A stretch of DNA of 23,446 nucleotides from an uncultured Nitrospinaceae bacterium (GTDB taxonomy: Bacteria; Nitrospinota; Nitrospinia; Nitrospinales; VA-1), in assembly GCA_913043155.1 (NCBI GenBank), contig CAJWLY010000005.1:1-23446 (forward strand). The letters run 5' to 3'. A model generated the notes under the pieces. It was not told where the DNA came from and did not search any database. It saw nothing but the letters and a program-made list of their open reading frames with translations. The position numbers and the translations under genes were made by a program. This document shows positions 5,873 through 19,948 of this stretch, in pieces (position 1 is the first letter of the stretch; every line of letters begins with the position of its first letter).

Positions 5873-6010
5873 ATAATTACTCGCATCTTGAAATAATCGA
5901 ACCCGACACCACCACCTCCCGCACTCTATAACCTCTGATAGGTTTAAATACAACCTGTTGCACGCTCATATTTAGAGAACTCCGCTTTCTACGCAGGCAA
6001 GGTTTTTCAT

Positions 6011-6039
6011 TTGCAGAACGCATGACGGTGTATTAATAT
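6011..6039 (+). promoter_or_regulatory. Putative sigma70-type promoter upstream of holB
   Basis: TTGCAG (6011-6016), 17-nt spacer, TAATAT (6034-6039). About 125 nt upstream of the holB ATG, in a 400-bp divergent intergenic region. Confidence 0.35.
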
Positions 6040-6165
6040 GAACTTGCTGAGGAGGGTGCATTCCCCCCTTCATCGCGACAACTTGTTGATCTATCATATT
6101 TTATCGACTAACCAAAGCAACCGTTCCAATTTCGAAAAAGAAAAGATGGATCGCCATAAACCGCC

Positions 6166-7185
6166 ATGTCATTTTCGCGTATTCTGGGCCAAGACCGGCC
6201 CAAACATATACTTAAAAAGACCCTTCGCAACGGCTGTATCCCGCACGCCTATCTGTTCTACGGTCAGGAGAGCGTAGGCAAAAAACTCGCTGCCGTCGAA
6301 CTGGCTAAGGCCCTCAACTGTGAGGTCTCCGGACCGGTAGATGGATGCGACGGATGCCCTTCCTGCCGCAAGATCGATGAACGCACGCATCCTGATTTTT
6401 TTCTACTCGAACCTGAAAAAAGCAGCCCTTCCGCACGGGACGCCATTCTCAAAATCGATGCGATCCGCGAGCTTCAGAAAAAACTGATCTACCTGCCCTA
6501 CGAGGGGCAAACCAAAGTTGCCATCATTGATTCGGCAGAATGCATGAACCCCCAGGCAGCTAACTCATTTTTAAAAACACTGGAGGAGCCACCGTCCAAA
6601 ACAATCATCATCCTCATCGCCTCCAATCCTTACCAATTGCTCCCAACCCTTGTTTCGCGCTGTCAGAGTATCCGGTTTTACCCGTTAGCAGTGGAAACCA
6701 TTAAAAAAATCATTACAAAACAACTTGAAAGCGAAACGGGTGATGCGCAACCGGAGTTGCTGGAGTTGAGAGCCCAACGGTCGATGGGACAGGTTGCTCG
6801 CGCCATGGAAGAAGACCTTCTCAAAACCTCAGAATACCGGGGAGATTTGATCGGTCTAATAGAACAGGTTTCGTTTAAACGCATGGATCTAGCGTTTCAG
6901 TGGATTAGAACCTATGGGCGAAAAACAGACCGTCTTCAGTCGATCCTAGATGAACTTTTAAATTTGGTGCACGATGCGGCAGTGCTCAAAACGAATCGTA
7001 ACCCTCGGGCGATCCAAAACAAAGACCTGACGCATCTACTGGAAAAGGTGGCAAACCAAAAATCTCTAGCGGCTCTTCTCGATATGTTCGATGCGGTCCA
7101 CCGCACCAAAGTCGCCTTGAAGTACAACGCCAACGCACAACTTTCGCTGGAGAATATGTTTCTCAACTTTTGCGAAGCCGCATAG
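6166..7185 (+). CDS. holB: DNA polymerase III delta' subunit
   Basis: 339 aa. Clamp-loader AAA+ N-terminus (HAYLFYGQESVGKKLAAVELAKALNCE), Zn module CDGCPSCRKI, and box VII-like SRCQSIRF. Confidence 0.85.
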   Translation: MSFSRILGQDRPKHILKKTLRNGCIPHAYLFYGQESVGKKLAAVELAKALNCEVSGPVDGCDGCPSCRKIDERTHPDFFLLEPEKSSPSARDAILKIDAIRELQKKLIYLPYEGQTKVAIIDSAECMNPQAANSFLKTLEEPPSKTIIILIASNPYQLLPTLVSRCQSIRFYPLAVETIKKIITKQLESETGDAQPELLELRAQRSMGQVARAMEEDLLKTSEYRGDLIGLIEQVSFKRMDLAFQWIRTYGRKTDRLQSILDELLNLVHDAAVLKTNRNPRAIQNKDLTHLLEKVANQKSLAALLDMFDAVHRTKVALKYNANAQLSLENMFLNFCEAA

Positions 7186-7203: not shown

Positions 7204-8073
7204 ATGGATCAAACACTGACCGAAGAACAGGCGCAGCCTAGGAAAGAAAATAGAGGACCTCGTTTCCTCATCGGAATTCGTGTCGGCGACACCCTTAAAT
7301 CGGAATTGTTCGATCCGGTTAAACTGAACCTTCGCGTGGGTATGCAGGTGATGGCGGAAACCAATTATGGGACTCAACTAGGCGTAGTTGCTTCTAATAA
7401 GGTCCCCAACTTAAGTAAAAAGAATAAGAAATTCCAGCGCGTACTCAGAGTCGCCAATGAAAACGATTTTCAGGCTCAAACGAGAAAATTGGACCAGGAA
7501 AAACGGGCTAAGGAGCTGTGTGCGAGAAAAATTCTGGAACTGAAATTGCCGATGAACCTAAGTCGAGTGGTTCATATCCAAAAGCTGAAAAAGACCATTT
7601 TTTTCTTCACTGCCGAAGGCCGCGTAGACTTCCGTCAGCTCATCAAGGAACTGGGATCCGGCCTACGACACCGTATCGAAATGAAACAGGTGGGCGTGCG
7701 CGACGAGGCCCGATCGATTACTGGCTACGGGGTATGTGGGGAAGCCCTTTGCTGTTCTAGTTTCCTTCAGGACTTCACTCCGGTCACCATCCGCATGGCC
7801 AAGGATCAGGGACTCGTCCTCAACCCAACCAAAATTTCAGGGGTATGCGGACGTCTTATGTGTTGCCTGCAGTATGAACATGAAATTTACAAAAATCTCA
7901 TCAAAGACATGCCCAAGGTCAACCGCAAGATCCAGACTCCGGACGGGCCCGGCAAGGTCCTGAACAATGACATCCTGAAGCAAAATATCCTTGTCCGGCT
8001 CGACGATGAAAGTATAATGACCTATCCTTTAGACGAGTTGAGGGAGTTCCTGAAGCCAAAGAACCGGGAATAG
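7204..8073 (+). CDS. ricT: PSP1 C-terminal domain protein (RicT/YaaT-like)
   Basis: 289 aa. Conserved Cys pairs GVCGEALCC and GVCGRLMCCLQYE are typical of PSP1/YaaT. Gene order holB then yaaT is conserved as in Bacillus. Confidence 0.75.
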   Translation: MDQTLTEEQAQPRKENRGPRFLIGIRVGDTLKSELFDPVKLNLRVGMQVMAETNYGTQLGVVASNKVPNLSKKNKKFQRVLRVANENDFQAQTRKLDQEKRAKELCARKILELKLPMNLSRVVHIQKLKKTIFFFTAEGRVDFRQLIKELGSGLRHRIEMKQVGVRDEARSITGYGVCGEALCCSSFLQDFTPVTIRMAKDQGLVLNPTKISGVCGRLMCCLQYEHEIYKNLIKDMPKVNRKIQTPDGPGKVLNNDILKQNILVRLDDESIMTYPLDELREFLKPKNRE

Positions 8074-8372
8074 TTTCCACCAAAAACCAAGCCTTCTTAA
8101 AAACCACAGCCTACGCGCTGAAAGCCCATTGGAAAAAAATATTAGGCGCTCTCCTACTGGATACTCGCAAAGATTCAATCGCTGGGATGGGTTCACTTTT
8201 TCAAAAACACCCCTCATCCCCTTCTAGAACGGGAGTGATGGGCTCCGACCTTTTATCAATTCGTAACATCTTTTAAAAAATGATCTGAGAAAAACTTAAT
8301 CTTGAGAATCATCAAGTCTTCAAAATTTTCCGCTTCATCTGAAACCAAAAAACTCTCAATCGCTCAATCTCC

Positions 8373-10325
8373 ATGAAAAGTTTAGGAAAAAAGTTTTTTC
8401 TCACAACACCTATCTATTACGTAAACGATGTCCCGCACATCGGGCACGCCTATACAACCATTGCCGCCGATGTGGTGGCGCGCTACAGGCGGCTCGAAGG
8501 GTATGAGGTGATCTTTCTCACAGGAACCGACGAACACGGACAAAAAGTCCTGCAAGCCGCGCGCGAACTCAAGGTGGAACCACAGGAACACGTCGACAAA
8601 TTACACCAGCGATTCAAGGAACTTTGGCTGAGGTTCAATATCTCCAATGATGATTTTATCCGCACCACCGAAGAACGGCACAAGGCTCTCGTTTGCGACA
8701 TCCTACAGCGGTTACACGACAAAGGAGAGATCTATAAGGATAGCTACGAGGGCTGGTACTGCATGCCCTGCGAACGGTTCTGGACAGAAAAAGACCTTAT
8801 CCAAGGAAACTGCCCAGAATGCAAACGCAAGGTAGATAAAATCCAGGAGCACAACTATTTTTTCAAGATGGGGCAGTACCAGGATTGGCTGAAGAATTAC
8901 ATCCGAACGGACGAACGATTCATACAACCGGTGTCACGCCGTAATGAAGTGCTTGGTTTTCTCGACAAACCGCTCGGGGACTTGTGCATCTCGCGCCCGG
9001 TAGAGCGCCTCCCTTGGGGCATCCCCCTGCCCTTCGACAAAAAATACGTCACCTACGTCTGGTTCGACGCACTTATCAACTATATCTCCATTCATGGATC
9101 GCTCAACGAGATCAGGAGAAGCGGATTCTGGCCCGCAAACCATCATCTACTGGGCAAGGACATCCTTACCACCCACGCCGTTTACTGGTCCACAATGCTC
9201 AAGGCGATCGGACTCGATCCGGCGCTCAATCTTTTCGCCCATGGCTGGTGGACGGTGAACGGACAAAAAATGTCGAAGTCCATTGGTAACGTGGTGGAAC
9301 CCAACAGGTTAATTGAACAGTTCGGCGTCGATGCCATTCGGTACTTTCTGATGCGCGAGGTACCGTTTGGGATGGATGGAGACTTTTCGCACAAGGCGCT
9401 GATCGGACGTGTCAATAGCGACCTCGCAAATAACCTGGGAAATCTGCTCAACCGAACGATTAATATGATGAAAAGGTATCATGACTGCATAATTCCCGAA
9501 CCGACTGAACCTAATGAAGACGCTGATCTAAAAAATGAATTCCAAAAGGGAATCGACACTGTTCATAATCTTTATGACAGCCTGGCCTACAATAAAATTC
9601 TCGAGCGCGTCTGGCATTTGATTGACGTGACCAATAAATATATCGACCACCAGGGCCCGTGGACCCTGGTCAAGTCGGAGGACGGAAAAGAACGTCTCGC
9701 AACGGTCATGTACAACACCGCGGAGTGCCTGCGTATAATCGCGATCCTCGTTTATCCGTTCATGCCAAAAAGCGCCGAAACGATGATGCAACAATTGGGA
9801 ATCGAAATTTCCATTAAGGAACAGGGGCTGGAGACAATCAAAACATGGGGTGGATTAAAACCAGGAACAAGGGTGCAGCCGGGAAACCAGCTGTTCCCAC
9901 GCATTGAGGACAAAGAAGCAGAGAAACTTCTCGCTGCCGTAGAGGTAGCCGAAAAGCTGGACTCAAAAAAAGGAGCTGAAGTAATGGAAGAGGGAACTTC
10001 CGAACAGGTGAGCATTGACGAGTTCATGAAAATCGACCTACGAACAGGGAAAATCATTGCAGCAGAAAAGGTCGAAAAATCAAAAAAACTTCTGCAGTTA
10101 AAAGTAGATATTGGCAGCGAGGTGCGCCAAGTGGTTGCGGGTATTGCGGAATGCTACGAACCGGAACAACTGATCGGGCGAACCGTCATTCTTGCCGCCA
10201 ACCTTAAGCCGGCGAAACTGATGGGCGTCGAGTCGCAGGGCATGGTGCTCGCCGCCAGTGAAGGCGGAAATATCACTTTGGCCGGATTCGATCTGGAACC
10301 AGGCAAAGGGATACGAGTGCGATGA
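8373..10325 (+). CDS. metG: Methionyl-tRNA synthetase with C-terminal tRNA-binding (Trbp111/EMAPII-like) domain
   Basis: 650 aa. HIGH motif (PHIGHAYT), KMSKS motif (QKMSKSIG), zinc knuckles CMPCE...CPECKRK, and a C-terminal OB-fold domain (IDLRTGKIIAAEKV...GMVLAAS). Confidence 0.96.
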   Translation: MKSLGKKFFLTTPIYYVNDVPHIGHAYTTIAADVVARYRRLEGYEVIFLTGTDEHGQKVLQAARELKVEPQEHVDKLHQRFKELWLRFNISNDDFIRTTEERHKALVCDILQRLHDKGEIYKDSYEGWYCMPCERFWTEKDLIQGNCPECKRKVDKIQEHNYFFKMGQYQDWLKNYIRTDERFIQPVSRRNEVLGFLDKPLGDLCISRPVERLPWGIPLPFDKKYVTYVWFDALINYISIHGSLNEIRRSGFWPANHHLLGKDILTTHAVYWSTMLKAIGLDPALNLFAHGWWTVNGQKMSKSIGNVVEPNRLIEQFGVDAIRYFLMREVPFGMDGDFSHKALIGRVNSDLANNLGNLLNRTINMMKRYHDCIIPEPTEPNEDADLKNEFQKGIDTVHNLYDSLAYNKILERVWHLIDVTNKYIDHQGPWTLVKSEDGKERLATVMYNTAECLRIIAILVYPFMPKSAETMMQQLGIEISIKEQGLETIKTWGGLKPGTRVQPGNQLFPRIEDKEAEKLLAAVEVAEKLDSKKGAEVMEEGTSEQVSIDEFMKIDLRTGKIIAAEKVEKSKKLLQLKVDIGSEVRQVVAGIAECYEPEQLIGRTVILAANLKPAKLMGVESQGMVLAASEGGNITLAGFDLEPGKGIRVR

Positions 10326-11713
10326 TCATAGATACGCATGCCCACCTCGACATGGACACATATGACGAGGACCGCTCGGACGTGATTCAACGCGCCCGCG
10401 ACGGCGGGGTCGATTACATCCTTAACATTGGTTGCGACATCGAAAGCAGTCTGCGTTCGCGGGAACTGGCTGAGCGTTACGATTTTATTTACGCTACCGC
10501 TGGCGTTCATCCTCATGACGTAAAAAACATCAATGGACATACCTACGATCACCTCAGGGAACTGCTCTCGCACCCGAAGATGCTCGCGCTTGGGGAAACC
10601 GGCCTCGACTTTTTCAAGAATTACTCGCCCCAGGACCAGCAAAAGGAACATTTCCGCAAACAGATTGAGTTGGCGCGCGAAGTGGGTAAGCCCATCATCG
10701 TCCATAGTCGTGATGCGAATAATGACATCACCAGCATTCTCTCCGATCACTTCCCGAAAGATCGGTCCGCGCGATCAGGGATCTTCCATTGTTTCTCTGG
10801 AGACCAAGAACTGGCCGACCGGGCGCTAGAGATGGGATTCTACATCTCGTTCTCTGGTTCGGTCACCTTCAAGAAATCGGATGAACTGCGTACAGTGGCA
10901 AAAACAATCCCTGCCGATCGCCTGTTCGTCGAAACGGATTGTCCATTCCTCGCACCGGTCCCGAAACGCGGTAAACGGAACGAACCGTCCTACGTCAATC
11001 ACATTGCCCAACGGATTGCCGAAATACGCGGGCTCACCGTTGAAGACCTTGCACGTACCACCGCCCTCAACTTCTTCGAACTGTTCGGCATCGGCAAGGA
11101 AGCTAAGACCGGGACCGTGTCTTACCAAATACGCAACTCACTCTATCTCAATCTGACGACACGATGCACCGCCGATTGCTCATTCTGTACCCGCTTGACG
11201 CGTCCGATCGTCCAAGGCTACAACCTCCAACTCGACCGAGAACCGACAACTGAAGAGGTGTGGGAATCGATCGACGACTGCACAAAATATGATGAAATTG
11301 TTTTCTGTGGATATGGCGAACCGACGTTGAGGCTCGACGTCGTCAAGGAAGTAGCAAAAAAAATCAAAACTGCAGGGGGACGCGTTAGGCTGAACACTAA
11401 CGGACACGGCAACGCAATCAACAAACGCAATATCCTGCCCGAACTCAAGGGACTGGTTGATGCGATTTCAATCAGCCTCAACGCCGACACTCCTGAGGCC
11501 TACGATGAAATCGTCCGCCCCCTACCCGGCTTGCGCGAAGGCCTCTACGACAAGGTCAAGGAGTTCATCGAGGAATCCAAAAAATACATTCCGAAAGTGC
11601 AGGCCACCATCGTAACGCATCAGGACGGCGTCAATGAAACAAAATGTGAAGATATGGCCTGCAATGAGTTCGATATCGACTACCGGCCCCGACGCTACAA
11701 CATCGTGGGTTAA
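10322..11713 (+). CDS. tatD: TatD-family metal-dependent hydrolase fused to a C-terminal radical SAM domain
   Basis: 463 aa in one continuous frame. Residues 1 to ~250 are TatD (IDTHAHLD, HSRDA, FVETDCPFLAPVP). Residues ~255 to 463 carry CTADCSFC (CX3CX2C) and the glycine-rich FCGYGEPTL SAM motif. The start overlaps the metG stop (ATGA). Confidence 0.85.
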   Translation: MIIDTHAHLDMDTYDEDRSDVIQRARDGGVDYILNIGCDIESSLRSRELAERYDFIYATAGVHPHDVKNINGHTYDHLRELLSHPKMLALGETGLDFFKNYSPQDQQKEHFRKQIELAREVGKPIIVHSRDANNDITSILSDHFPKDRSARSGIFHCFSGDQELADRALEMGFYISFSGSVTFKKSDELRTVAKTIPADRLFVETDCPFLAPVPKRGKRNEPSYVNHIAQRIAEIRGLTVEDLARTTALNFFELFGIGKEAKTGTVSYQIRNSLYLNLTTRCTADCSFCTRLTRPIVQGYNLQLDREPTTEEVWESIDDCTKYDEIVFCGYGEPTLRLDVVKEVAKKIKTAGGRVRLNTNGHGNAINKRNILPELKGLVDAISISLNADTPEAYDEIVRPLPGLREGLYDKVKEFIEESKKYIPKVQATIVTHQDGVNETKCEDMACNEFDIDYRPRRYNIVG

Positions 11714-11771: not shown

Positions 11772-12164
11772 ATGAACTGGATTCCTACAGGCGCGGTTTT
11801 CAGCGGGTTCAGCGTACTGCTTGGAGCAGTCGGGGCGCACGGACTCAAAAATATTCTCTCCGAACAAAAACTCAAGGCTTTCCACACGGCAACTCAGTAC
11901 ATGGGATACCACGGTCTAGCACTGATACTCGTCGGTATTCTTTGCCTGCATCTTGGAGCCGACAGGGCGAAAGCACTTAAGAAAGTCGGCATCCTGTTTC
12001 TGGCGGGTATTCTCATGTTCTCTGGAAGTATCTATATCCTCACCTTCGATGGGCCCCGTTTATTTGGTCCGGTCACCCCACTCGGCGGACTCTCCTTTAT
12101 AGCCGGCTGGTTCACCTTCGCCTGGGTGATGCGTGGGCATTCCAATAAAAACTATAATCCCTAA
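11772..12164 (+). CDS. DUF423/YgdD-family small inner-membrane protein
   Basis: 130 aa from an ATG preceded by an AAAAAAGGGGGG Shine-Dalgarno. GAVGAHGL...AFHTATQYMGYHGLAL...FSGSIYIL...VTPLGGLSFIAGW closely parallels E. coli YgdD. The ORF-track N-terminal extension (11634) overlaps the previous gene and is rejected. Confidence 0.82.
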   Translation: MNWIPTGAVFSGFSVLLGAVGAHGLKNILSEQKLKAFHTATQYMGYHGLALILVGILCLHLGADRAKALKKVGILFLAGILMFSGSIYILTFDGPRLFGPVTPLGGLSFIAGWFTFAWVMRGHSNKNYNP

Positions 12165-12166
12165 AA

Positions 12167-12182
12167 CCACCCTCAAAGGTGG
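12167..12182. terminator. Short hairpin between convergent genes, possible bidirectional terminator
   Basis: CCACC-ctcaaa-GGTGG (5-bp stem), followed by TTTT when read on the minus strand. Lies in the 26-bp gap between the convergent stops at 12164 and 12191. Confidence 0.25.
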
Positions 12183-12190
12183 ATTTCGAT

Positions 12191-13039
12191 TTACCCATTC
12201 TCTCGCCCCAGCCTTTTTCCTACAGGAGAGAAGATATCTTTGGAACGTTTCCGGTAGGAGTACCACACAAGCAAGGCCAATATTCCCGTGGCAGAGGCGG
12301 ACGGGACAAGCGCGACACGATCCCAAGCCGGACGAAAATCAATCTCTCCTCCGATCTCACCAGTATAGTGCTTCAGCATTTCGGCATATTCGATCATGAG
12401 ATGCACGGGATAAACGGTCTCGGTGCTCTCGGCCGAACGATGCACTGGCACCTCGAATGATTTTTCCTCACCGCCGCGAATGGTGAATCCCATCATCTGC
12501 CCAAACTCGTCCGCGACCAGTCCAGGGGGAAGAAGAAGCATCAGCCGAACATTTTTAAACGACGACGAGTTATTACGGAGAAAAATTTTTAGTAGCGATC
12601 CATCTCCCTGCCGGGTCGTTCGGATTTCTCCATCGATAACTGACTTCACTGGCTCGCGGAAATAAAATGAGTCGGTATGAATCTGCGTAAGTGGCGCTTC
12701 GTCTTTGGCGCCGGTTTTATATTCCGCCATAACCACGAGTGGGTAGCGTCCCGTTCTCAACACCGGCGGATGGTCGGTGTTCTCCAGCGTGACCCCCTGC
12801 CCCGGATCAAGTCTGACGATCTTATCCATCATCACCATGCTGTGATGAAAATGGAACATAGGGTGTACATCATAGAGCGGCTCACGTCCGTTATTCTTCA
12901 CCGTCAAACGAACCCACACCCTACCGTCATCATCCACCAACGCCTGCGTGGTTAGTTGCAGCGGGGACGCCCACACAGAAGAGGAAAACCCAGCTGTTAA
13001 AAAAAACACCAGCAATAGACCTGCGCAAAGTTTCTCCAT
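12191..13039 (-). CDS. Exported hypothetical protein: signal peptide, two beta-rich (Ig/CARDB-like) repeats, C-terminal transmembrane anchor
   Basis: Start taken at the third in-frame Met (MEKLCAGLLLVFFLTAGFSSSVWA^SP), which gives a plausible signal peptide. The ORF-track start is 13075. Two similar segments (VRLTVKNNGREPLYDV and LKIFLRNNSSSFKNVRLML). C-terminal hydrophobic ATGILALLVWYSY followed by RKRSK. Confidence 0.55.
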   Translation of the reverse strand: MEKLCAGLLLVFFLTAGFSSSVWASPLQLTTQALVDDDGRVWVRLTVKNNGREPLYDVHPMFHFHHSMVMMDKIVRLDPGQGVTLENTDHPPVLRTGRYPLVVMAEYKTGAKDEAPLTQIHTDSFYFREPVKSVIDGEIRTTRQGDGSLLKIFLRNNSSSFKNVRLMLLLPPGLVADEFGQMMGFTIRGGEEKSFEVPVHRSAESTETVYPVHLMIEYAEMLKHYTGEIGGEIDFRPAWDRVALVPSASATGILALLVWYSYRKRSKDIFSPVGKRLGRENG

Positions 13040-13146
13040 AGAAGGTGATTCTATCATGGTTTCACACGGAGCCATCTTGCTACCTGTCTATTGGGGCCGA
13101 AAATTGGTATACTTATCCAAACCGTAACACATGTAGGGGGTGGGTC

Positions 13147-14032: not shown

Positions 14033-17000
14033 ATGGAACCTCACGCCTTCATTGAGAATTTCCTGAACCGAGTACGCCGCCTGCATACGCGGACCCAGTT
14101 ACTTCACGGGTTCAACATAATAATAGCTTATATTTCAATAAGTTATCTAACAGCCAACCTGCTGGCTTGGTTTTATCCCGCAGCCCATGAATGGTCCTGG
14201 TTGGTGGGAGCCCTGTTTCTAGGGGGATTGGGTTACATAGTCTTCCGCTACATCCTCCAGATCGGATTCGTGTCCTTTTCGCTTGACGATGCGGCGCTGT
14301 TGACGGAATTGCGGCACCCCCACTTAAACAATTCTCTCATCAATTCGTGCCAGTTGGCGCGTCGGCTGAAGCGCCCTGAAGCAAAAAAACAATCATCCCT
14401 GGAATTTATCCACGAACTGCACCGCCGTACCCGCCTGACCATCGAAGCAATCGATCCAAGATCGGTAATTGACCGGAGTGACTTGGTGTCAAGCCGCAAC
14501 TGGTTTGCTGGGGCTTTAGGTTCGCTTATTCTTCTGGCGTTGTTTCTTCCCGATTTTCTAACACAGGGATACAACCGCTGGATGCCTCCCCCTAAACCGC
14601 ACCAAGCCGCAATTGACAAATCGGTAAAACCAGACCTTTTGGAACCCACTGCCGCTAAAACTGCCTATGCGATCGACTCCTTGAGTCTGACTTTTCACTT
14701 TCCAGCGTATACGAGAATGAAGACAAAAACTGTAAAATCTTCTGACGGAAAGATCCACGTCCTTCCCGGAAGCGAGGTGAAAATTTCAGCCCGCACCAAC
14801 CTCCCCACAACCGGGGGCGACCTGATATTTAACGGCAAGGACAACTTCGTCATGAGCATGGAGGATCCAGCGAACCTTAACGGACGCCTCCTTATAAAGG
14901 AAAAAGGCTTCTACCAATTCCGAATCAAAGATGCGGTTGGAAAAAAACATCTACTCGCGCAAAAGTATCCGGTAACGCTCGGCCAAGACCGCTCGCCCAG
15001 CATCGTTTTATTCCTCGCCAACCCAAAACCTGTTTACTTCAACACCGACAAGGTCCAGCTGTTTTATGAAGGGAGCGACGACTTCGGTATCGGGTCCGTC
15101 GAACTGGTGGCCTACATCAACGGAAAAATCCAGCGCTTTCCGGTCAAACGGTTCAAAGAACACGAGAAGGAAGCCAAGGGCGACTACACTTGGGCCCTAT
15201 CGCAAATCGAGCTTCATCCGGGTGACGAGGTCCAGTACTACCTTGAGATTAAAGACAACGACAACGTACGAGGTCCGAACACCGGCCAATCCGAGGCATA
15301 CACCTTCACCATTTTCGACTCAGCAAAAGAACTGGAGAGCTTAATCGCCTTACAGGAAGAGTTGACCGAGAAAATGATCGCACTCCTGGCAACGGGGCTA
15401 GTTAAAGGCGCGTCGCTAGATAACTCGGTCGATGATCCGATGCAGTGGGAAAAACTTTTCACCACCAGCACCGACGCCCTGATCGAGATCGTAAGCCTGG
15501 CCCAACGCATTCGCGACCGGGGAAAAACCATCGACCGGTTCCCGCAACCTTACCTCAACCTGCTCAATAACGTTGCCTCCGGTCTGGCACGCATTCGACA
15601 GGAGCAGATTGAAGCAATCAACCAGATTCGGGACACAATCCATAAACCAACGCAGGCAAAATTTGACTCCTCTTCCCCTTACCGCACCATCAACAACCGA
15701 ATGATCGGTCACCTGGAAAACGATATTCTCTTCTTGGTCAAAATGACCAATCGGCAGAAGTTGGACCGGGTGGTGGGTCTGGAAGAGAAGCTCAACAACC
15801 TGACCCAAACCCTGCGCCAAGAGTTTGAGAAACTGAAGGACCGCAAAACCAAACCACGCCCAAACGAGTTGAAGAGCAAAATTAAACAGATACGCGACAC
15901 CCTGCAAAAAATCATGGACCAGCTGGCCCGCCAGACCCAGTCCATGCCCGACGAATTTTTAAATTCGGCCGCCTTCAAACGCCTGAGCATGGACTCGTTC
16001 GCCGCTTCGCTGGAACGGATGATGGACATGGTGAACCGCGGCCAGTTCGAGGAAGCAATGGAGGAGTTGAAAAAAGTCTCTGAGGACCTGCAACAGCTAG
16101 CCAATCAATTCAACCAAGCACGGTCGGAAATGGACGACCTTCTCGATATGCAGATCGCGGAAGCGCTGGACGACTCCATCGAGAAGTTGGATAAGCTGGA
16201 AGCTCGACAACAGAGGCTGGTTGAAGACACCACCCAAATCAATCAGGAACTGAGGGAACAACAATCAAAACGGTTTGAAAAGGAGCTGGACAATTTCTTT
16301 AAAGAACTCCAACACAACGTAGATGCCATCCGCTCTCTTTTCAAAGAGGACGAAGAGTATCTCAACAGGCACCGTGTGATGAAGCAACTTGAAAAATTGA
16401 TGGCTCAAGAAACAAAACTCAACCGAAAAATAAATGAACTAGGCCAGAAAACCGTCGATTCGAGCCTCACAGAGAGGTTGGATCAGAATTTCCAAACCCT
16501 CAACGAAGCGCGCAAAGAACTTTCCAAATTGACCCATGAAAAAGACTCTCTGCGTGTGAATGAGTTTCAGCGGTTCAGGGAAGGGTTGCCGCAGCTTATG
16601 AAAAAATACGACACGCTCCGAGAACTAGCCAGGTTGCGGGATCTCACCGAATTCGGCAACCTGTTCAAAAAAGCCTACCCCGAAGTGTTTCGCTGGCAAA
16701 ATAACCTGCGCACCACGCCCAATCGGAGGGAGGACATTGGTGAACAATTGGACAACGACCTAAAGCAGGTCACCCGGCTCAACAACGAAATTTCAAAAAA
16801 GTTAGGATCGATGATGCGATCGATCCGCAAGAACTACGATTCATCCATCACCGAAAAACAAAAAAAGAAACTGGGACAAATGGCTCAACAAGAAAGTCAG
16901 ATGCGCAAGGAAGTAGAGGAGTTGACACGCCGGTTTGACCGTTTAAACCAAGAAAACCCGATGGTCCCATCCCAGCTTTCGAAGCAGATGGGGCAAACGG

Positions 17001-17368
17001 GGCGTCGCATGAAACGCGCCGAGCGAAACCTCAAAGAACAGAATATCCGCGAAAGCATAGAGGCAGAAAACCATGCACTTAAGGGATTGCGCGAAACCCG
17101 TGATCTACTCAAGGAAATGAAAAACTCTAACGGCCAAGCCCAACAGGCGCAACAGAAAACACCGAACCGACTCGGCACTGGCAGCCGACTTGACTCACGG
17201 CGTGGTGGAGGAGCACGTATGCGGAATGAGCGCGTGCTGTTGCCTTCCGAAGATCAATATCAGGTACCCAGAGAATTTCGCGAGGAAATTCTCAACGCAA
17301 TGAAAAAGCAAACGCCGAAAGACTATCAGCGCATGGTCATGGAATATTACAAGAACCTAGTGAAATGA
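14033..17368 (+). CDS. Giant membrane-anchored coiled-coil protein (possibly DUF4175/TIGR02302-like), function unknown
   Basis: 1111 aa. Has 2-3 N-terminal transmembrane helices, a beta-rich region at roughly residues 200-420, about 600 aa of charged heptad-like helix (E/K/Q/R/L rich), and a Q/G-rich low-complexity tail (NGQAQQAQQKTPNRLGTGSRLDSRRGGGARMR). An in-frame stop lies 27 nt upstream of the ATG. Contiguous with the MoxR locus. Confidence 0.75.
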   Translation: MEPHAFIENFLNRVRRLHTRTQLLHGFNIIIAYISISYLTANLLAWFYPAAHEWSWLVGALFLGGLGYIVFRYILQIGFVSFSLDDAALLTELRHPHLNNSLINSCQLARRLKRPEAKKQSSLEFIHELHRRTRLTIEAIDPRSVIDRSDLVSSRNWFAGALGSLILLALFLPDFLTQGYNRWMPPPKPHQAAIDKSVKPDLLEPTAAKTAYAIDSLSLTFHFPAYTRMKTKTVKSSDGKIHVLPGSEVKISARTNLPTTGGDLIFNGKDNFVMSMEDPANLNGRLLIKEKGFYQFRIKDAVGKKHLLAQKYPVTLGQDRSPSIVLFLANPKPVYFNTDKVQLFYEGSDDFGIGSVELVAYINGKIQRFPVKRFKEHEKEAKGDYTWALSQIELHPGDEVQYYLEIKDNDNVRGPNTGQSEAYTFTIFDSAKELESLIALQEELTEKMIALLATGLVKGASLDNSVDDPMQWEKLFTTSTDALIEIVSLAQRIRDRGKTIDRFPQPYLNLLNNVASGLARIRQEQIEAINQIRDTIHKPTQAKFDSSSPYRTINNRMIGHLENDILFLVKMTNRQKLDRVVGLEEKLNNLTQTLRQEFEKLKDRKTKPRPNELKSKIKQIRDTLQKIMDQLARQTQSMPDEFLNSAAFKRLSMDSFAASLERMMDMVNRGQFEEAMEELKKVSEDLQQLANQFNQARSEMDDLLDMQIAEALDDSIEKLDKLEARQQRLVEDTTQINQELREQQSKRFEKELDNFFKELQHNVDAIRSLFKEDEEYLNRHRVMKQLEKLMAQETKLNRKINELGQKTVDSSLTERLDQNFQTLNEARKELSKLTHEKDSLRVNEFQRFREGLPQLMKKYDTLRELARLRDLTEFGNLFKKAYPEVFRWQNNLRTTPNRREDIGEQLDNDLKQVTRLNNEISKKLGSMMRSIRKNYDSSITEKQKKKLGQMAQQESQMRKEVEELTRRFDRLNQENPMVPSQLSKQMGQTGRRMKRAERNLKEQNIRESIEAENHALKGLRETRDLLKEMKNSNGQAQQAQQKTPNRLGTGSRLDSRRGGGARMRNERVLLPSEDQYQVPREFREEILNAMKKQTPKDYQRMVMEYYKNLVK

Positions 17369-18933
17369 AGCGCATCGTTTACATCCTGCTGGCATTATCC
17401 CTTGAGCTGACAGCCATCGGCCCGGCAAGTGGGACGCCCACAGCCACCCCCCCTGACGAAGTATTCGCCGGGTATAAGCTGATCGAACAGTGGCGCATTG
17501 AAGAGGCCGGTACCCTGGCCGAAAAATTGCTGGACAAATATCCCGAATCGGGAGACGCCCATTTCCTTAGTGCGCGGATCGAATTTTTAAGAGGAAACTA
17601 TAAATACGCCAAAAAAATTCTCGGCCGCGTTGGGGACAACCACGCTCCAGTCCGCGAATTCAAAACACTGGTCCAGGACACCCATGATGCGACAAAATTG
17701 TTCATCTCCCGGGAGTCGGAACATTTCATCTTTCACTTCGAGCAGGGCCCCGATGAAATTCTAGTACATTACGCTGAAGAGGTTTTGGAAAAATCATATG
17801 AAGTCCTCGGCAAGCTCCTAAATTACTACCCTCAACAAAAAGTACTGGTCGAATTCTATCCTGACCGGAAACCTTTTTCCCGCATCTCTCCGCTAACGCT
17901 CCAAGACATCCTCACATCAGGCACGGTGGCGCTTTGCAAGTACAACCGCATCATGATGATCTCCCCGGGGTCCCTAGTGCGCGGCTATAACTGGATGGAC
18001 ACACTGAGCCATGAATACACCCATTACCTCATGACGAGAAAAAGTCGTAACAACCTTCCGCTGTGGATGCATGAGGGAATCGCAAAATTCCTTGAAGGGC
18101 GATGGCGAAATAGCGAAGAATACCTAACCCCCATCATGGAGACGATACTTGCAGGCGGATTGAACAACGATTACCTGATCTCCCTCGACAGCATGATGCC
18201 TTCGCTGGCCAAGCTAAAAACAACCGAAGACGTACAATTAGCCTACGCTGAAGTGTCGACTATGATTGAGTACCTAGCAGAACTCCGGGGGGATGAGGTG
18301 ATCGCCGCCATTCTTGACGACTTGGCCGGAGGCGAACCGTTCGATTCAGCTTTTACAAGAAGGTTGGGCATGGATCTCGACGACTTTCAAAAAGAGTGGA
18401 AGCAATTTGCAAAGCAAAAAAATCTAAAAACCGTTCCCGGACTCAAAATTCCGGGAATTCGCTTCAGAGCTGATCGCTCTATAACAGAAGAGGACAGCAA
18501 AGAGTATCGCGAGGTCGGCGCACGCAAAACCCAGGACTTGACTTTTCTAGGAGACATCCTCAGGTCGCGAGACTTTAACCGGGCGGCGATCGTAGAGTAT
18601 CGTCGTGCCATTGACCAAGCGAAAACCTTTTCTCCCATTCTGCACAACAAACTTGCGAAGACCTTTTTTCTGACACGAGAGTTTGATCAGGCCGAGGCAC
18701 TCCTGAAAAAAAGCCTCAGTCATTATCCCATGTTCCATACCACCCTCTCTAGCCTGGGTGAACTCTATTTCGAAACCGGAAACATGGAAAAATCGCTCGA
18801 CTTCTACGAACAAGCAGTGCGGGTCAACCCTTTCAATCCGTTCGCGCACATCAGGCTGATGGCAATCTACCAAAAGCTGGGGCTGAACAAAGAAAAAGAA
18901 TTGCAGGCAAAACTGTTTGGATATATAGATTGA
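17365..18933 (+). CDS. Secreted HEXXH...E (Peptidase_MA_2-like) plus TPR-repeat protein
   Basis: 522 aa. N-terminal signal-like segment MKRIVYILLALSLELTAIGPASG. Zinc motif LSHEYTHYLM, followed by E in WMHEGIAKF 17 residues later. C-terminal TPR-like repeats (...YFETGNMEKSLDFYEQAVRVNPFNPFAHIRLMAIYQKLG). ATGA overlap with the upstream gene. Confidence 0.78.
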   Translation: MKRIVYILLALSLELTAIGPASGTPTATPPDEVFAGYKLIEQWRIEEAGTLAEKLLDKYPESGDAHFLSARIEFLRGNYKYAKKILGRVGDNHAPVREFKTLVQDTHDATKLFISRESEHFIFHFEQGPDEILVHYAEEVLEKSYEVLGKLLNYYPQQKVLVEFYPDRKPFSRISPLTLQDILTSGTVALCKYNRIMMISPGSLVRGYNWMDTLSHEYTHYLMTRKSRNNLPLWMHEGIAKFLEGRWRNSEEYLTPIMETILAGGLNNDYLISLDSMMPSLAKLKTTEDVQLAYAEVSTMIEYLAELRGDEVIAAILDDLAGGEPFDSAFTRRLGMDLDDFQKEWKQFAKQKNLKTVPGLKIPGIRFRADRSITEEDSKEYREVGARKTQDLTFLGDILRSRDFNRAAIVEYRRAIDQAKTFSPILHNKLAKTFFLTREFDQAEALLKKSLSHYPMFHTTLSSLGELYFETGNMEKSLDFYEQAVRVNPFNPFAHIRLMAIYQKLGLNKEKELQAKLFGYID

Positions 18934-18961
18934 TAATAGTTAATTGATTCAGGGAGATCTT

Positions 18962-19948
18962 ATGAAAGATCTGGAGTTGGCCCAAGAGTTATTGAGTGCG
19001 AAAAAGCGCGTCACCGGCGAAATACGAAAAGTGATCGTGGGGCAGGATGAGGTGATCGAAAACCTGTTGATTGCGTTGTTCTGCAAAGGACACTGCCTTT
19101 TTGTTGGCGTCCCCGGGCTGGCCAAAACCTTGTTGGTAAGCACTCTAGCCCGGGTACTGAATCTCAACTTCAGCAGGATCCAGTTCACACCCGACCTGAT
19201 GCCCTCAGACATCACCGGAACGGATATCCTTTACCAAGATCAGGCCACTAACAAGCGCGAATTCCGGTTCATCAAGGGGCCAGTTTTTGCCCACATCATT
19301 CTCGCGGACGAGATTAATCGCACACCACCAAAGACCCAGGCTGCCCTACTCCAAGCCATGCAGGAGCAGCAGGTGACCGTCGGCGGGAACACCTACCAAC
19401 TCGACCAACCCTTCCAAGTCTTCGCCACACAAAATCCGATTGAGCACGAAGGCACCTATCCCTTGCCCGAAGCACAATTGGACCGGTTCATGTTCCTAGT
19501 CAACGTTAGCTACCCCACCATGGAGCAGGAGGTTAACATTGCCATATCCACCACTTCGGGATTCCACCCGGACCTGGACGTAGTTCTGGATGCCGCACAT
19601 GTTCGTGAGTTGCAAACGCTGGTTCCGCGCGTTCCCGTGTCAGAACACGTCGCGGAATATGCGGTGCGGCTGGTGCAAAGCTCGCGCCCGAGCAAGAATG
19701 GGGCGACACCGGACTTCATAAACGAATGGATCGACTGGGGAGCGGGTCCGCGCGCGTCGCAATACCTTATTCTTGGGGCAAAGGCCCACGCCCTCATGGA
19801 CAACCGCGTAACCACAACCGTGGATGACATCAAAAACGTCGCCCGGCAGGTGCTCGAACACCGGCTCATTCTCAACTTCAAAGCCGAAGCTGAAAATATC
19901 ACCACCACCGATATTATCGAAAAACTTCTACAGGCAGTTAAAGCGTAA
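18962..19948 (+). CDS. MoxR-family AAA+ ATPase
   Basis: Walker A GVPGLAKT, Walker B ILADEINR, sensor ATQNP, helix-2 insert. These are classic MoxR/RavA features. ATG at 18962 with an AGGGAGA Shine-Dalgarno 5 nt upstream. The TTG at 18944 in the ORF track is rejected. Confidence 0.9.
   Translation: MKDLELAQELLSAKKRVTGEIRKVIVGQDEVIENLLIALFCKGHCLFVGVPGLAKTLLVSTLARVLNLNFSRIQFTPDLMPSDITGTDILYQDQATNKREFRFIKGPVFAHIILADEINRTPPKTQAALLQAMQEQQVTVGGNTYQLDQPFQVFATQNPIEHEGTYPLPEAQLDRFMFLVNVSYPTMEQEVNIAISTTSGFHPDLDVVLDAAHVRELQTLVPRVPVSEHVAEYAVRLVQSSRPSKNGATPDFINEWIDWGAGPRASQYLILGAKAHALMDNRVTTTVDDIKNVARQVLEHRLILNFKAEAENITTTDIIEKLLQAVKA

Follow-up and report, generated by a model that had tools for sequence, protein, structure and literature searches.

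The window, that is, the whole 23,446-nucleotide stretch of contig CAJWLY010000005.1 from an uncultured Nitrospinaceae bacterium, carries a gene in which a TatD-family hydrolase continues without an intervening stop codon into a small radical S-adenosylmethionine (SAM) domain. We refer to this gene as tatD::rSAM and to the two parts of its product as the TatD half and the radical SAM half. An earlier note on this DNA had described a single open reading frame (ORF) of 463 amino acids (aa), and the ORF is present exactly as noted, together with the motifs CTADCSFC and FCGYGEPTL, both of which can be read directly from the sequence. The radical SAM module spans about 199 aa (residues 265-463), a trivial departure from the roughly 210 aa first given.

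Both halves are recognized by curated domain models. Pfam TatD_DNase (PF01026) covers residues 3-256 and profile positions 1-253 of 253 (290.7 bits, cut-off 27; E = 1.2e-86), and the NCBIfam model TIGR00010, 'YchF/TatD family DNA exonuclease', covers residues 2-256 (293.4 bits, cut-off 206). The C-terminal half matches the two models that the earlier note had proposed for it, both above their cut-offs: Pfam Radical_SAM (PF04055) at residues 277-432 (67.6 bits, cut-off 29.5; E = 1.9e-18) and TIGR04038 (tatD_link_rSAM) at residues 265-459 (246.2 bits, cut-off 129.7; model positions 1-191 of 192). NCBIfam types TIGR04038 as 'subfamily_domain' and names it 'TatD family nuclease-associated radical SAM protein'. 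The sister model TIGR04100 was rejected at 167 bits against a cut-off of 262. The linker between the two domains is variable in sequence, with about eight unconserved columns at this place in the consensus of fused proteins. By every testable property, the protein belongs to the TatD family, the radical SAM superfamily and TIGR04038, including fusion or adjacency to TatD. The features of the locus are collected in Table 1.

Table 1. The tatD::rSAM gene, its domains and motifs, and the genes around it.
Feature	Position	Strand	Basis and remarks
tatD::rSAM fusion gene, complete	10322..11713	+	463 aa plus stop; ORF list, sequence, both domain models above curated cut-offs
ATGA overlap of metG stop (TGA 10323-10325) and fusion start (ATG 10322-10324)	10322..10325	+	sequence
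TatD hydrolase domain, aa 2-256, class II (HxH) YcfH/YabD type	10325..11089	+	TIGR00010, 293 bits
Inter-domain linker, aa 257-264 (GKEAKTGT)	11090..11113	+	gap between two hidden Markov model (HMM) envelopes
TIGR04038 radical SAM domain, aa 265-459, minimal partial-barrel core	11114..11698	+	
CX3CX2C cluster-binding motif CTADCSFC, C282/C286/C289	11165..11188	+	sequence
FCGYGEP, 'GGE'-type SAM-binding motif, starts aa 328, G330/G332/E333	11303..11323	+	sequence
holB	6166..7185	+	TIGR00678
ricT/yaaT	7204..8073	+	NF041131
metG, methionine--tRNA ligase, 650 aa	8373..10325	+	NF008900, 872 bits; immediately upstream of fusion
DUF423 membrane protein	11772..12164	+	PF04241, E = 2e-27; downstream neighbour

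A sequencing or assembly error that removed a stop codon or shifted the frame between two adjacent genes could also produce such an ORF, as the earlier note itself had pointed out. We compared the whole protein with 90%-identity clusters and considered the best 120, which are 73-95% identical to it. Both Pfam domains were present in all 120, and more than 100 were 461-465 aa long, with six shorter ones (435 or 453 aa). Those with a name belonged to Nitrospinaceae, Nitrospina or Candidatus Nitromaritima. When representative genomes were scanned with the single sequence of the radical SAM half, 38 Nitrospinota loci were returned, in 31 of which an uninterrupted ORF of 462-463 aa could be extracted and codon-aligned; these 31 were assembled independently of one another. 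The exceptions were contig ends, one frameshift and one run of Ns. In other lineages, all 76 full-length fused representatives carried one CX3CX2C motif about 25 residues past the end of the TatD domain, so that the spacing of the junction is common to divergent proteins. Fused forms also include isolate-derived genome records, such as that of Geoalkalibacter halelectricus. These comparative data exclude a missing stop or a frameshift for practical purposes and leave an artefact with a vanishingly small probability.

The frameshifted orthologue lies in locus L025 (Nitrospina sp. SP265, PBKP01000048.1, 3225-4612), where the reading frame changes at around aa 172-177, within the TatD half and away from the junction. 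The locus comes from a metagenome-assembled genome (MAG), and the frameshift reflects either an error of assembly or a pseudogene. The run of Ns, in L037, is a scaffold gap, and the C-terminal truncation of the radical SAM half in that locus is only apparent. The same genome scan gave a sole match outside Nitrospinota, in a Candidatus Aenigmatarchaeota MAG (L039, 4001-4384), with 28% identity over aa 19-155 of the radical SAM half. This sequence probably belongs to a different radical SAM family.

We then compared selection on the two halves across the 31 Nitrospinota orthologues. The mean ratio of nonsynonymous to synonymous differences per site (pN/pS) relative to the window protein was 0.18 in each half. 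Mean amino-acid identity was 75% for the TatD half and 78% for the radical SAM half, and the closest, unsaturated pair gave substitution-rate ratios (dN/dS) of 0.09 and 0.05, respectively. Considering the equal pN/pS, the higher identity and the lower dN/dS, the radical SAM half is at least as constrained as the TatD half. Together with the conserved active-site residues described below, the sequence comparisons show that tatD::rSAM encodes a genuine, selectively maintained two-domain enzyme with both active sites intact.

To place the fusion among its relatives, we searched 1.84 billion 50%-identity representatives exhaustively with the radical SAM half (aa 258-463) using phmmer. This returned 1421 matches at E <= 1e-3, of which 774 were at E <= 1e-10 and 183 at E <= 1e-30. 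We took the taxonomic breadth of the family from these representative and profile searches and not from the single-sequence genome scan. An N-terminal TatD domain was found in 92 of the 150 best representatives (76 at full length and 16 cut at the N-terminus). The count rises to about 97 once truncated calls are recognized, since about five proteins called short, or long without TatD, still include the final helix of TatD or match the Pfam TatD model weakly. Fused proteins occur in Nitrospinota, Nitrospirota, Desulfuromonadota and Omnitrophota. Named examples from the profile search came from Geoalkalibacter halelectricus (on a 4.1-Mb contig), Geoalkalibacter sp., Desulfuromusa, Nitrospirae/Nitrospirota and Nitrospinae, and one fused representative cluster came from Candidatus Omnitrophota. 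Judged from these sequences, the fusion is the majority architecture of the radical SAM family, and not an exception to a normal adjacency, as had been supposed; it spans at least four phyla. No fusion partner other than TatD was found for the radical SAM domain among the odd-length members, which are truncated TatD fusions or have uninformative extensions. N-terminal extensions with no Pfam match precede the TatD domain in P0153 (about 110 aa in a protein of 572 aa) and a stand-alone radical SAM domain in P0261 (about 135 aa in a protein of 336 aa) and P0254 (about 60 aa in one of 263 aa), the latter two extensions being of low complexity.

The family also has split forms. Stand-alone members in the profile search are 196-201 aa long and, where named, mostly come from anaerobic Clostridia (Carboxydothermus, Thermosediminibacter, Tepidanaerobacter, Thermovenabulum, Syntrophothermus and Fuchsiella). 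The name 'TatD family nuclease-associated radical SAM protein' is already attached to many of them. The gene order is metG, two POR genes, tatD, rSAM and ksgA in Tepidanaerobacter, and metG, tatD, rSAM, tal and ksgA in Fuchsiella. A Clostridia MAG has metG, tatD and rSAM followed at some distance by ksgA, with a radical SAM protein that scores as TIGR04100. In these split pairs, tatD and rSAM are about 90-116 nucleotides (nt) apart. Since the order of the split genes is the order of the domains in the fusion, the relation is a classical Rosetta-stone one, and the functional link drawn from it in the earlier note is legitimate. Fused or adjacent, the two are associated in at least five phyla; within the best 150, fused forms are the commoner, and split pairs are found in Clostridia.

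In the Carboxydothermus hydrogenoformans read assembly (L044), the TIGR04038 gene (6001-6597, 280.6 bits) is flanked by a DUF3792 gene and a copper-resistance cluster comprising a CsoR-like repressor, an HMA protein and a P-type ATPase.

A rough neighbour-joining tree of 135 radical SAM domains required 18 changes of fusion state, against 37 (minimum 32) when the states were shuffled. Fusion state therefore seems strongly clustered on this tree and not cleanly monophyletic, which suggests more than one fusion or fission event. Repeated events would also be expected if the two activities were unrelated and co-expressed operon neighbours had simply become fused by neutral change, which the loss of a stop codon could easily bring about at the spacing of the split genes. 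The Carboxydothermus gene, which is unlinked from tatD, fits such an origin as well. However, neutral fusion is hard to accept because the association is broad and exclusive: it extends over at least five phyla, and the radical SAM domain was never found fused to anything but TatD. The fixed length of the linker and the equal purifying selection on both halves speak against it too, and we consider it quite improbable.

The TatD half aligns with E. coli YcfH and S. aureus TatD and has all of the predicted metal ligands (H6, H8, E92, H128, H156, E204 and D206), with conservation of 90% or more for each across 75 fused proteins. Its nearest relatives in the PDB are S. aureus SAV0491 (2gzx, 6l25), T. 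maritima 1j6o and E. coli YcfH (1yix), with E-values from 1e-59 to 1e-65. By the definition of class II (HxH) enzymes (PMC10085689), the alignments and gene order show the TatD half to be a predicted housekeeping metal-dependent hydrolase of the YcfH/YabD type, belonging to the tmk-holB-ricT-metG-tatD cluster. E. coli YcfH acts as a 3'-exonuclease on single-stranded DNA and as an apurinic/apyrimidinic (AP) endonuclease on double-stranded DNA, and a tatD yjjV ycfH triple mutant is sensitive to hydrogen peroxide (PMC10085689). We rejected the Qat anti-phage nuclease QatD as an identity for this half, with 105.7 bits to NF041926 against a cut-off of 230 and with housekeeping neighbours (holB, ricT, metG).

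The radical SAM half is likewise conserved at its predicted active site. The CX3CX2C cysteines and G330, G332 and E333 are invariant in 75 fused and 95 stand-alone sequences, and Y268, Y275, N277, R337, R356, T359, G361, D380, S383, S385, Y394, F415 and R457 are at least 90% conserved. The window protein retains all of these positions, and conservation falls on the same columns whether the protein is fused or stands alone. The half has the partial (beta/alpha)6 TIM-barrel core of radical SAM enzymes, and an AlphaFold model of the domain built with 94 stand-alone homologues reached a predicted local distance difference test score (pLDDT) of 93 and a predicted template-modelling score (pTM) of 0.90. 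We take it to carry an NTNG/SxS-type SAM-ribose motif, as in nucleotide-acting radical SAM enzymes. A PDB sequence search with the radical SAM half gave nothing better than E = 0.2, and a PDB search with the family profile gave only weak, generic matches to RlmN (the best, E = 8e-5), MoaA, a viperin-like enzyme and YydG. The radical SAM half is thus a minimal open core with one [4Fe-4S] site, which has no accessory, auxiliary-cluster or SPASM region and no close characterized relative.

Two specific identities for this half were tried and rejected. For a glycyl-radical activase, the NrdG2 model TIGR02495 reached 27.5 bits against a cut-off of 131.15, and there was no glycyl-radical enzyme among the window genes scanned. 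For MoaA (GTP 3',8-cyclase), the best model reached 32.2 bits against 231, and the domain ends at aa 463 without a second cysteine cluster.

The radical SAM domain might instead serve the TatD half itself, as a maturase or activase that modifies the protein post-translationally or assembles its metal site, and not act on the TatD substrate. Its best match to an HMM outside the family is to a 'tungsten cofactor oxidoreductase radical SAM maturase', it has a single, dedicated protein partner, and it resembles the activase of pyruvate formate-lyase (PFL). However, all activase and maturase models scored far below their cut-offs, the tungsten maturase at 54.5 bits against 380 and NrdG2 as given above. 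When we compared the conserved positions of fused TatDs with E. coli YcfH and S. aureus TatD, we found no partner-specific residues. Every position at least 90% conserved in the fused TatDs is also present in these unpartnered ones, the exceptions being isolated conservative replacements, namely E221Q in the E. coli protein and A89G and G172N in that of S. aureus. No partner-specific glycine or cysteine motif was seen. To our knowledge, neither E. coli nor S. aureus has a TIGR04038 radical SAM protein. Considering also that unpartnered E. coli YcfH is reported to be active as a nuclease (PMC10085689) and that a 1:1 covalent fusion is unusual for a catalytic activase, we regard a maturase role as rather unlikely.

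We next looked at the genes around the fusion. In the window, holB, ricT and metG precede the fusion and a DUF423 gene follows it. The order holB, ricT, metG and fusion was found in every Nitrospinota locus that reached far enough upstream, and in Geoalkalibacter and a Nitrospirae MAG the order is tmk, holB, PSP1/ricT, metG and tatD::rSAM, with unrelated genes downstream. The earlier note had described the fusion as coupled to metG. From these gene orders, the metG linkage is the ancestral tmk-holB-ricT-metG-tatD housekeeping synteny, which belongs to tatD (ycfH/yabD) and not to the fusion. The ATGA overlap makes translational coupling from metG to the fusion possible, and 28 of the 38 Nitrospinota loci share this ATGA context.

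This neighbourhood also bears on the substrate. The shared substrate could be tRNA or aminoacyl-tRNA and not DNA, with the TatD half being a DTD3/YcfH-like D-aminoacyl-tRNA deacylase or an RNA 3'-end hydrolase and the radical SAM half modifying or repairing the tRNA or its aminoacyl moiety. Consistent with this, the fusion is tightly coupled to metG through the overlap, the Clostridia pair lies within a translation and RNA cluster running from metG to ksgA, and hydrolysis of D-aminoacyl-tRNA has been reported both for Synechocystis dtd3, a TatD-family protein sharing 40% identity with YcfH, and for YcfH itself (as cited in PMC10711561). Among the PDB profile matches of the radical SAM half, moreover, an rRNA/tRNA methyltransferase, RlmN, ranks best, and the peptide epimerase YydG/EpeE also appears. 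Conversely, the adjacency of metG and tatD is ancestral and shared with the DNA replication genes holB and tmk, and for this reason does not single out RNA. The resemblance to RlmN and EpeE is weak and of a generic kind, and the deacylase report is a secondary citation. We regard tRNA in place of DNA as fairly improbable.

Downstream of the fusion, the DUF423 gene was called mechanically from 11634, which would make it overlap the fusion gene by 80 nt. Its real start is the ATG given in Table 1, as indicated by the Pfam match and a G-rich Shine-Dalgarno-like run. DUF423 lies downstream of the fusion in most Nitrospinota loci and not in other phyla. Since it is a neighbour only in Nitrospinota, and since other genes lie downstream in loci L040 and L042, it is probably outside the system. 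A terminator-like hairpin follows the DUF423 gene at 12167-12182. Upstream, a 300-nt gap separates ricT and metG (8074-8372), and a promoter-like site scoring 10 of 12 lies just upstream of this gap at 7991-8018, inside the 3' end of ricT. Promoter and terminator scans of the window were not above chance, no Rfam family matched anywhere in it, and a tRNA scan of it gave nothing above threshold.

Further along, an ORF of 294 aa on the minus strand (12191-13075) has no Pfam or NCBIfam match and is hydrophobic in a stretch at its N-terminus and in a segment close to its C-terminus. With tblastn, it was found near the fusion on the opposite strand in many Nitrospinota loci. Its features suggest a membrane or secreted protein specific to the lineage. 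A run of genes on the plus strand (14033-19948) encodes a 1111-aa DUF4175 protein with long coiled-coil-like and low-complexity regions, a Peptidase_MA plus TPR protein (17365-18933) and a MoxR-type AAA_3 ATPase (18944-19948). By its gene content, this set resembles a MoxR-associated membrane module.

Returning to the fusion, several results support a functional link between the two domains: the fusion in at least four phyla, the split pairs in the same order, TatD as the sole recurrent partner, the shared conserved columns and the short linker of fixed spacing. We tentatively favour a reading in which a single nucleic-acid substrate is handled by the two domains in turn, with radical hydrogen abstraction on a nucleotide coupled to TatD hydrolysis, and we rate its chances as somewhat short of even. 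The [4Fe-4S] cluster would reductively cleave SAM to a 5'-deoxyadenosyl radical, which would take a hydrogen from the sugar or base of a nucleotide within a polynucleotide. The target may lie in DNA, as a lesion or a 3' end that is damaged or blocked, or it may be the 3' end of an RNA or tRNA. The neighbouring two-metal TatD site would then hydrolyse the phosphodiester (or ester) bond. In this scheme, the TatD domain would hold the macromolecule for the small open radical SAM core, which lacks an accessory domain for substrate binding.

We favour a nucleic acid because the active site of a small open core is probably completed only by a macromolecular substrate or by a partner domain, and because TatD proteins bind polynucleotide 3' ends. 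The nuclease activity of YcfH, together with the weak matches of the radical SAM half to MoaA, viperin, RlmN and BlsE, supports this class of substrate. A macromolecular substrate is further suggested by the minimal core being most like PFL activase, which acts on a macromolecule. R337, R356 and R457 are invariant or nearly so, which is compatible with phosphate binding. Sequence does not decide between DNA and RNA or tRNA: the neighbours holB and tmk and the nuclease data on YcfH point to DNA, whereas the neighbours metG and ksgA and the DTD3 report, as cited at second hand, point to tRNA.

Four points weigh against a shared nucleic-acid substrate. The Carboxydothermus rSAM gene has no tatD in the approximately 6 kb shown on either side, so a physical link between the two is not obligatory. 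The physiological substrate of YcfH-type TatD is itself disputed between DNA 3' ends or AP sites (PMC10085689) and D-aminoacyl-tRNA (in a report cited by PMC10711561). A single-sequence AlphaFold model of the full-length protein had a pLDDT of 43 and gave no usable inter-domain geometry. Finally, our literature search found no experiment on any member of the TIGR04038 family. The earlier note had pointed to a radical step in nucleic-acid repair or processing; nothing found here places such a step in DNA repair.

If the sequential reading holds, the chemistry could be an undescribed two-step reaction, in which a minimal radical SAM enzyme abstracts hydrogen from a DNA or RNA nucleotide, for example in an oxygen-independent resolution of lesions or blocked 3' ends, and TatD then cuts the backbone. 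Such a reaction would be a housekeeping function in several phyla and would redefine the role of YcfH/YabD-type TatD. We consider this possible but doubtful.

At the level of sequence and architecture, the fusion is already known and is ordinary for its lineage. Near-identical sequences are public (P0001, 95% identity; L001, 97% over the radical SAM half). Fusion and adjacency alike are presumably covered in the TIGRFAMs description of TIGR04038. In InterPro, the family is entered as IPR023821, 'TatD-associated rSAM' (quoted in bioRxiv 10.1101/2024.11.19.624229), and this preprint on a clustering method was the sole mention in our literature search, which found no paper on TIGR04038, TIGR04100 or 'TatD-rSAM'. 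With no papers on the family and no solved relative of the radical SAM half, the earlier note was right that its biochemistry is undescribed. The family is thus a widespread radical SAM domain of uncharacterized chemistry (the 774 representatives above), tied to a highly conserved, functionally unsettled bacterial hydrolase in a core housekeeping cluster. Knowing its reaction could clarify the substrate of YcfH/YabD-type TatD and might bring to light new radical chemistry on nucleic acids. For biochemistry, the fusion offers a construct with a fixed 1:1 ratio.

Among known systems, the glycyl-radical enzyme activases (PFL-activating enzyme, 3c8f, and NrdG) are like the radical SAM half in their small size, single cluster and open partial barrel. 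With only 17% identity, the resemblance is structural only. Viperin, MoaA, BlsE and RlmN gave weak HMM or profile matches, all far below the family cut-offs, and the radical SAM half lacks the C-terminal auxiliary cluster of MoaA, the C-terminal extension of viperin, and the N-terminal domain and methyl-carrying cysteine pair of RlmN. Spore photoproduct lyase is a radical SAM DNA-repair enzyme of about 340 aa with its own DNA-binding elements. Its HMM was not matched among the best 25 of 45 families, and it serves as a conceptual precedent for a radical SAM enzyme acting on DNA.

The two closest comparisons are with the families of the two halves. YcfH/YabD-type hydrolases (1yix; 2gzx/6l25; 1j6o) align over their full length, share all metal ligands and occupy the same slot after holB and metG. 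The characterized ones are stand-alone proteins of about 255-265 aa, whereas the window protein adds a C-terminal radical SAM domain of about 200 aa. With the TIGR04038/IPR023821 family, nothing substantive differs: the C-terminal half matches end to end, keeps all family-invariant residues and is partnered with TatD, the window form being fused where the named Clostridia RefSeq examples stand alone.

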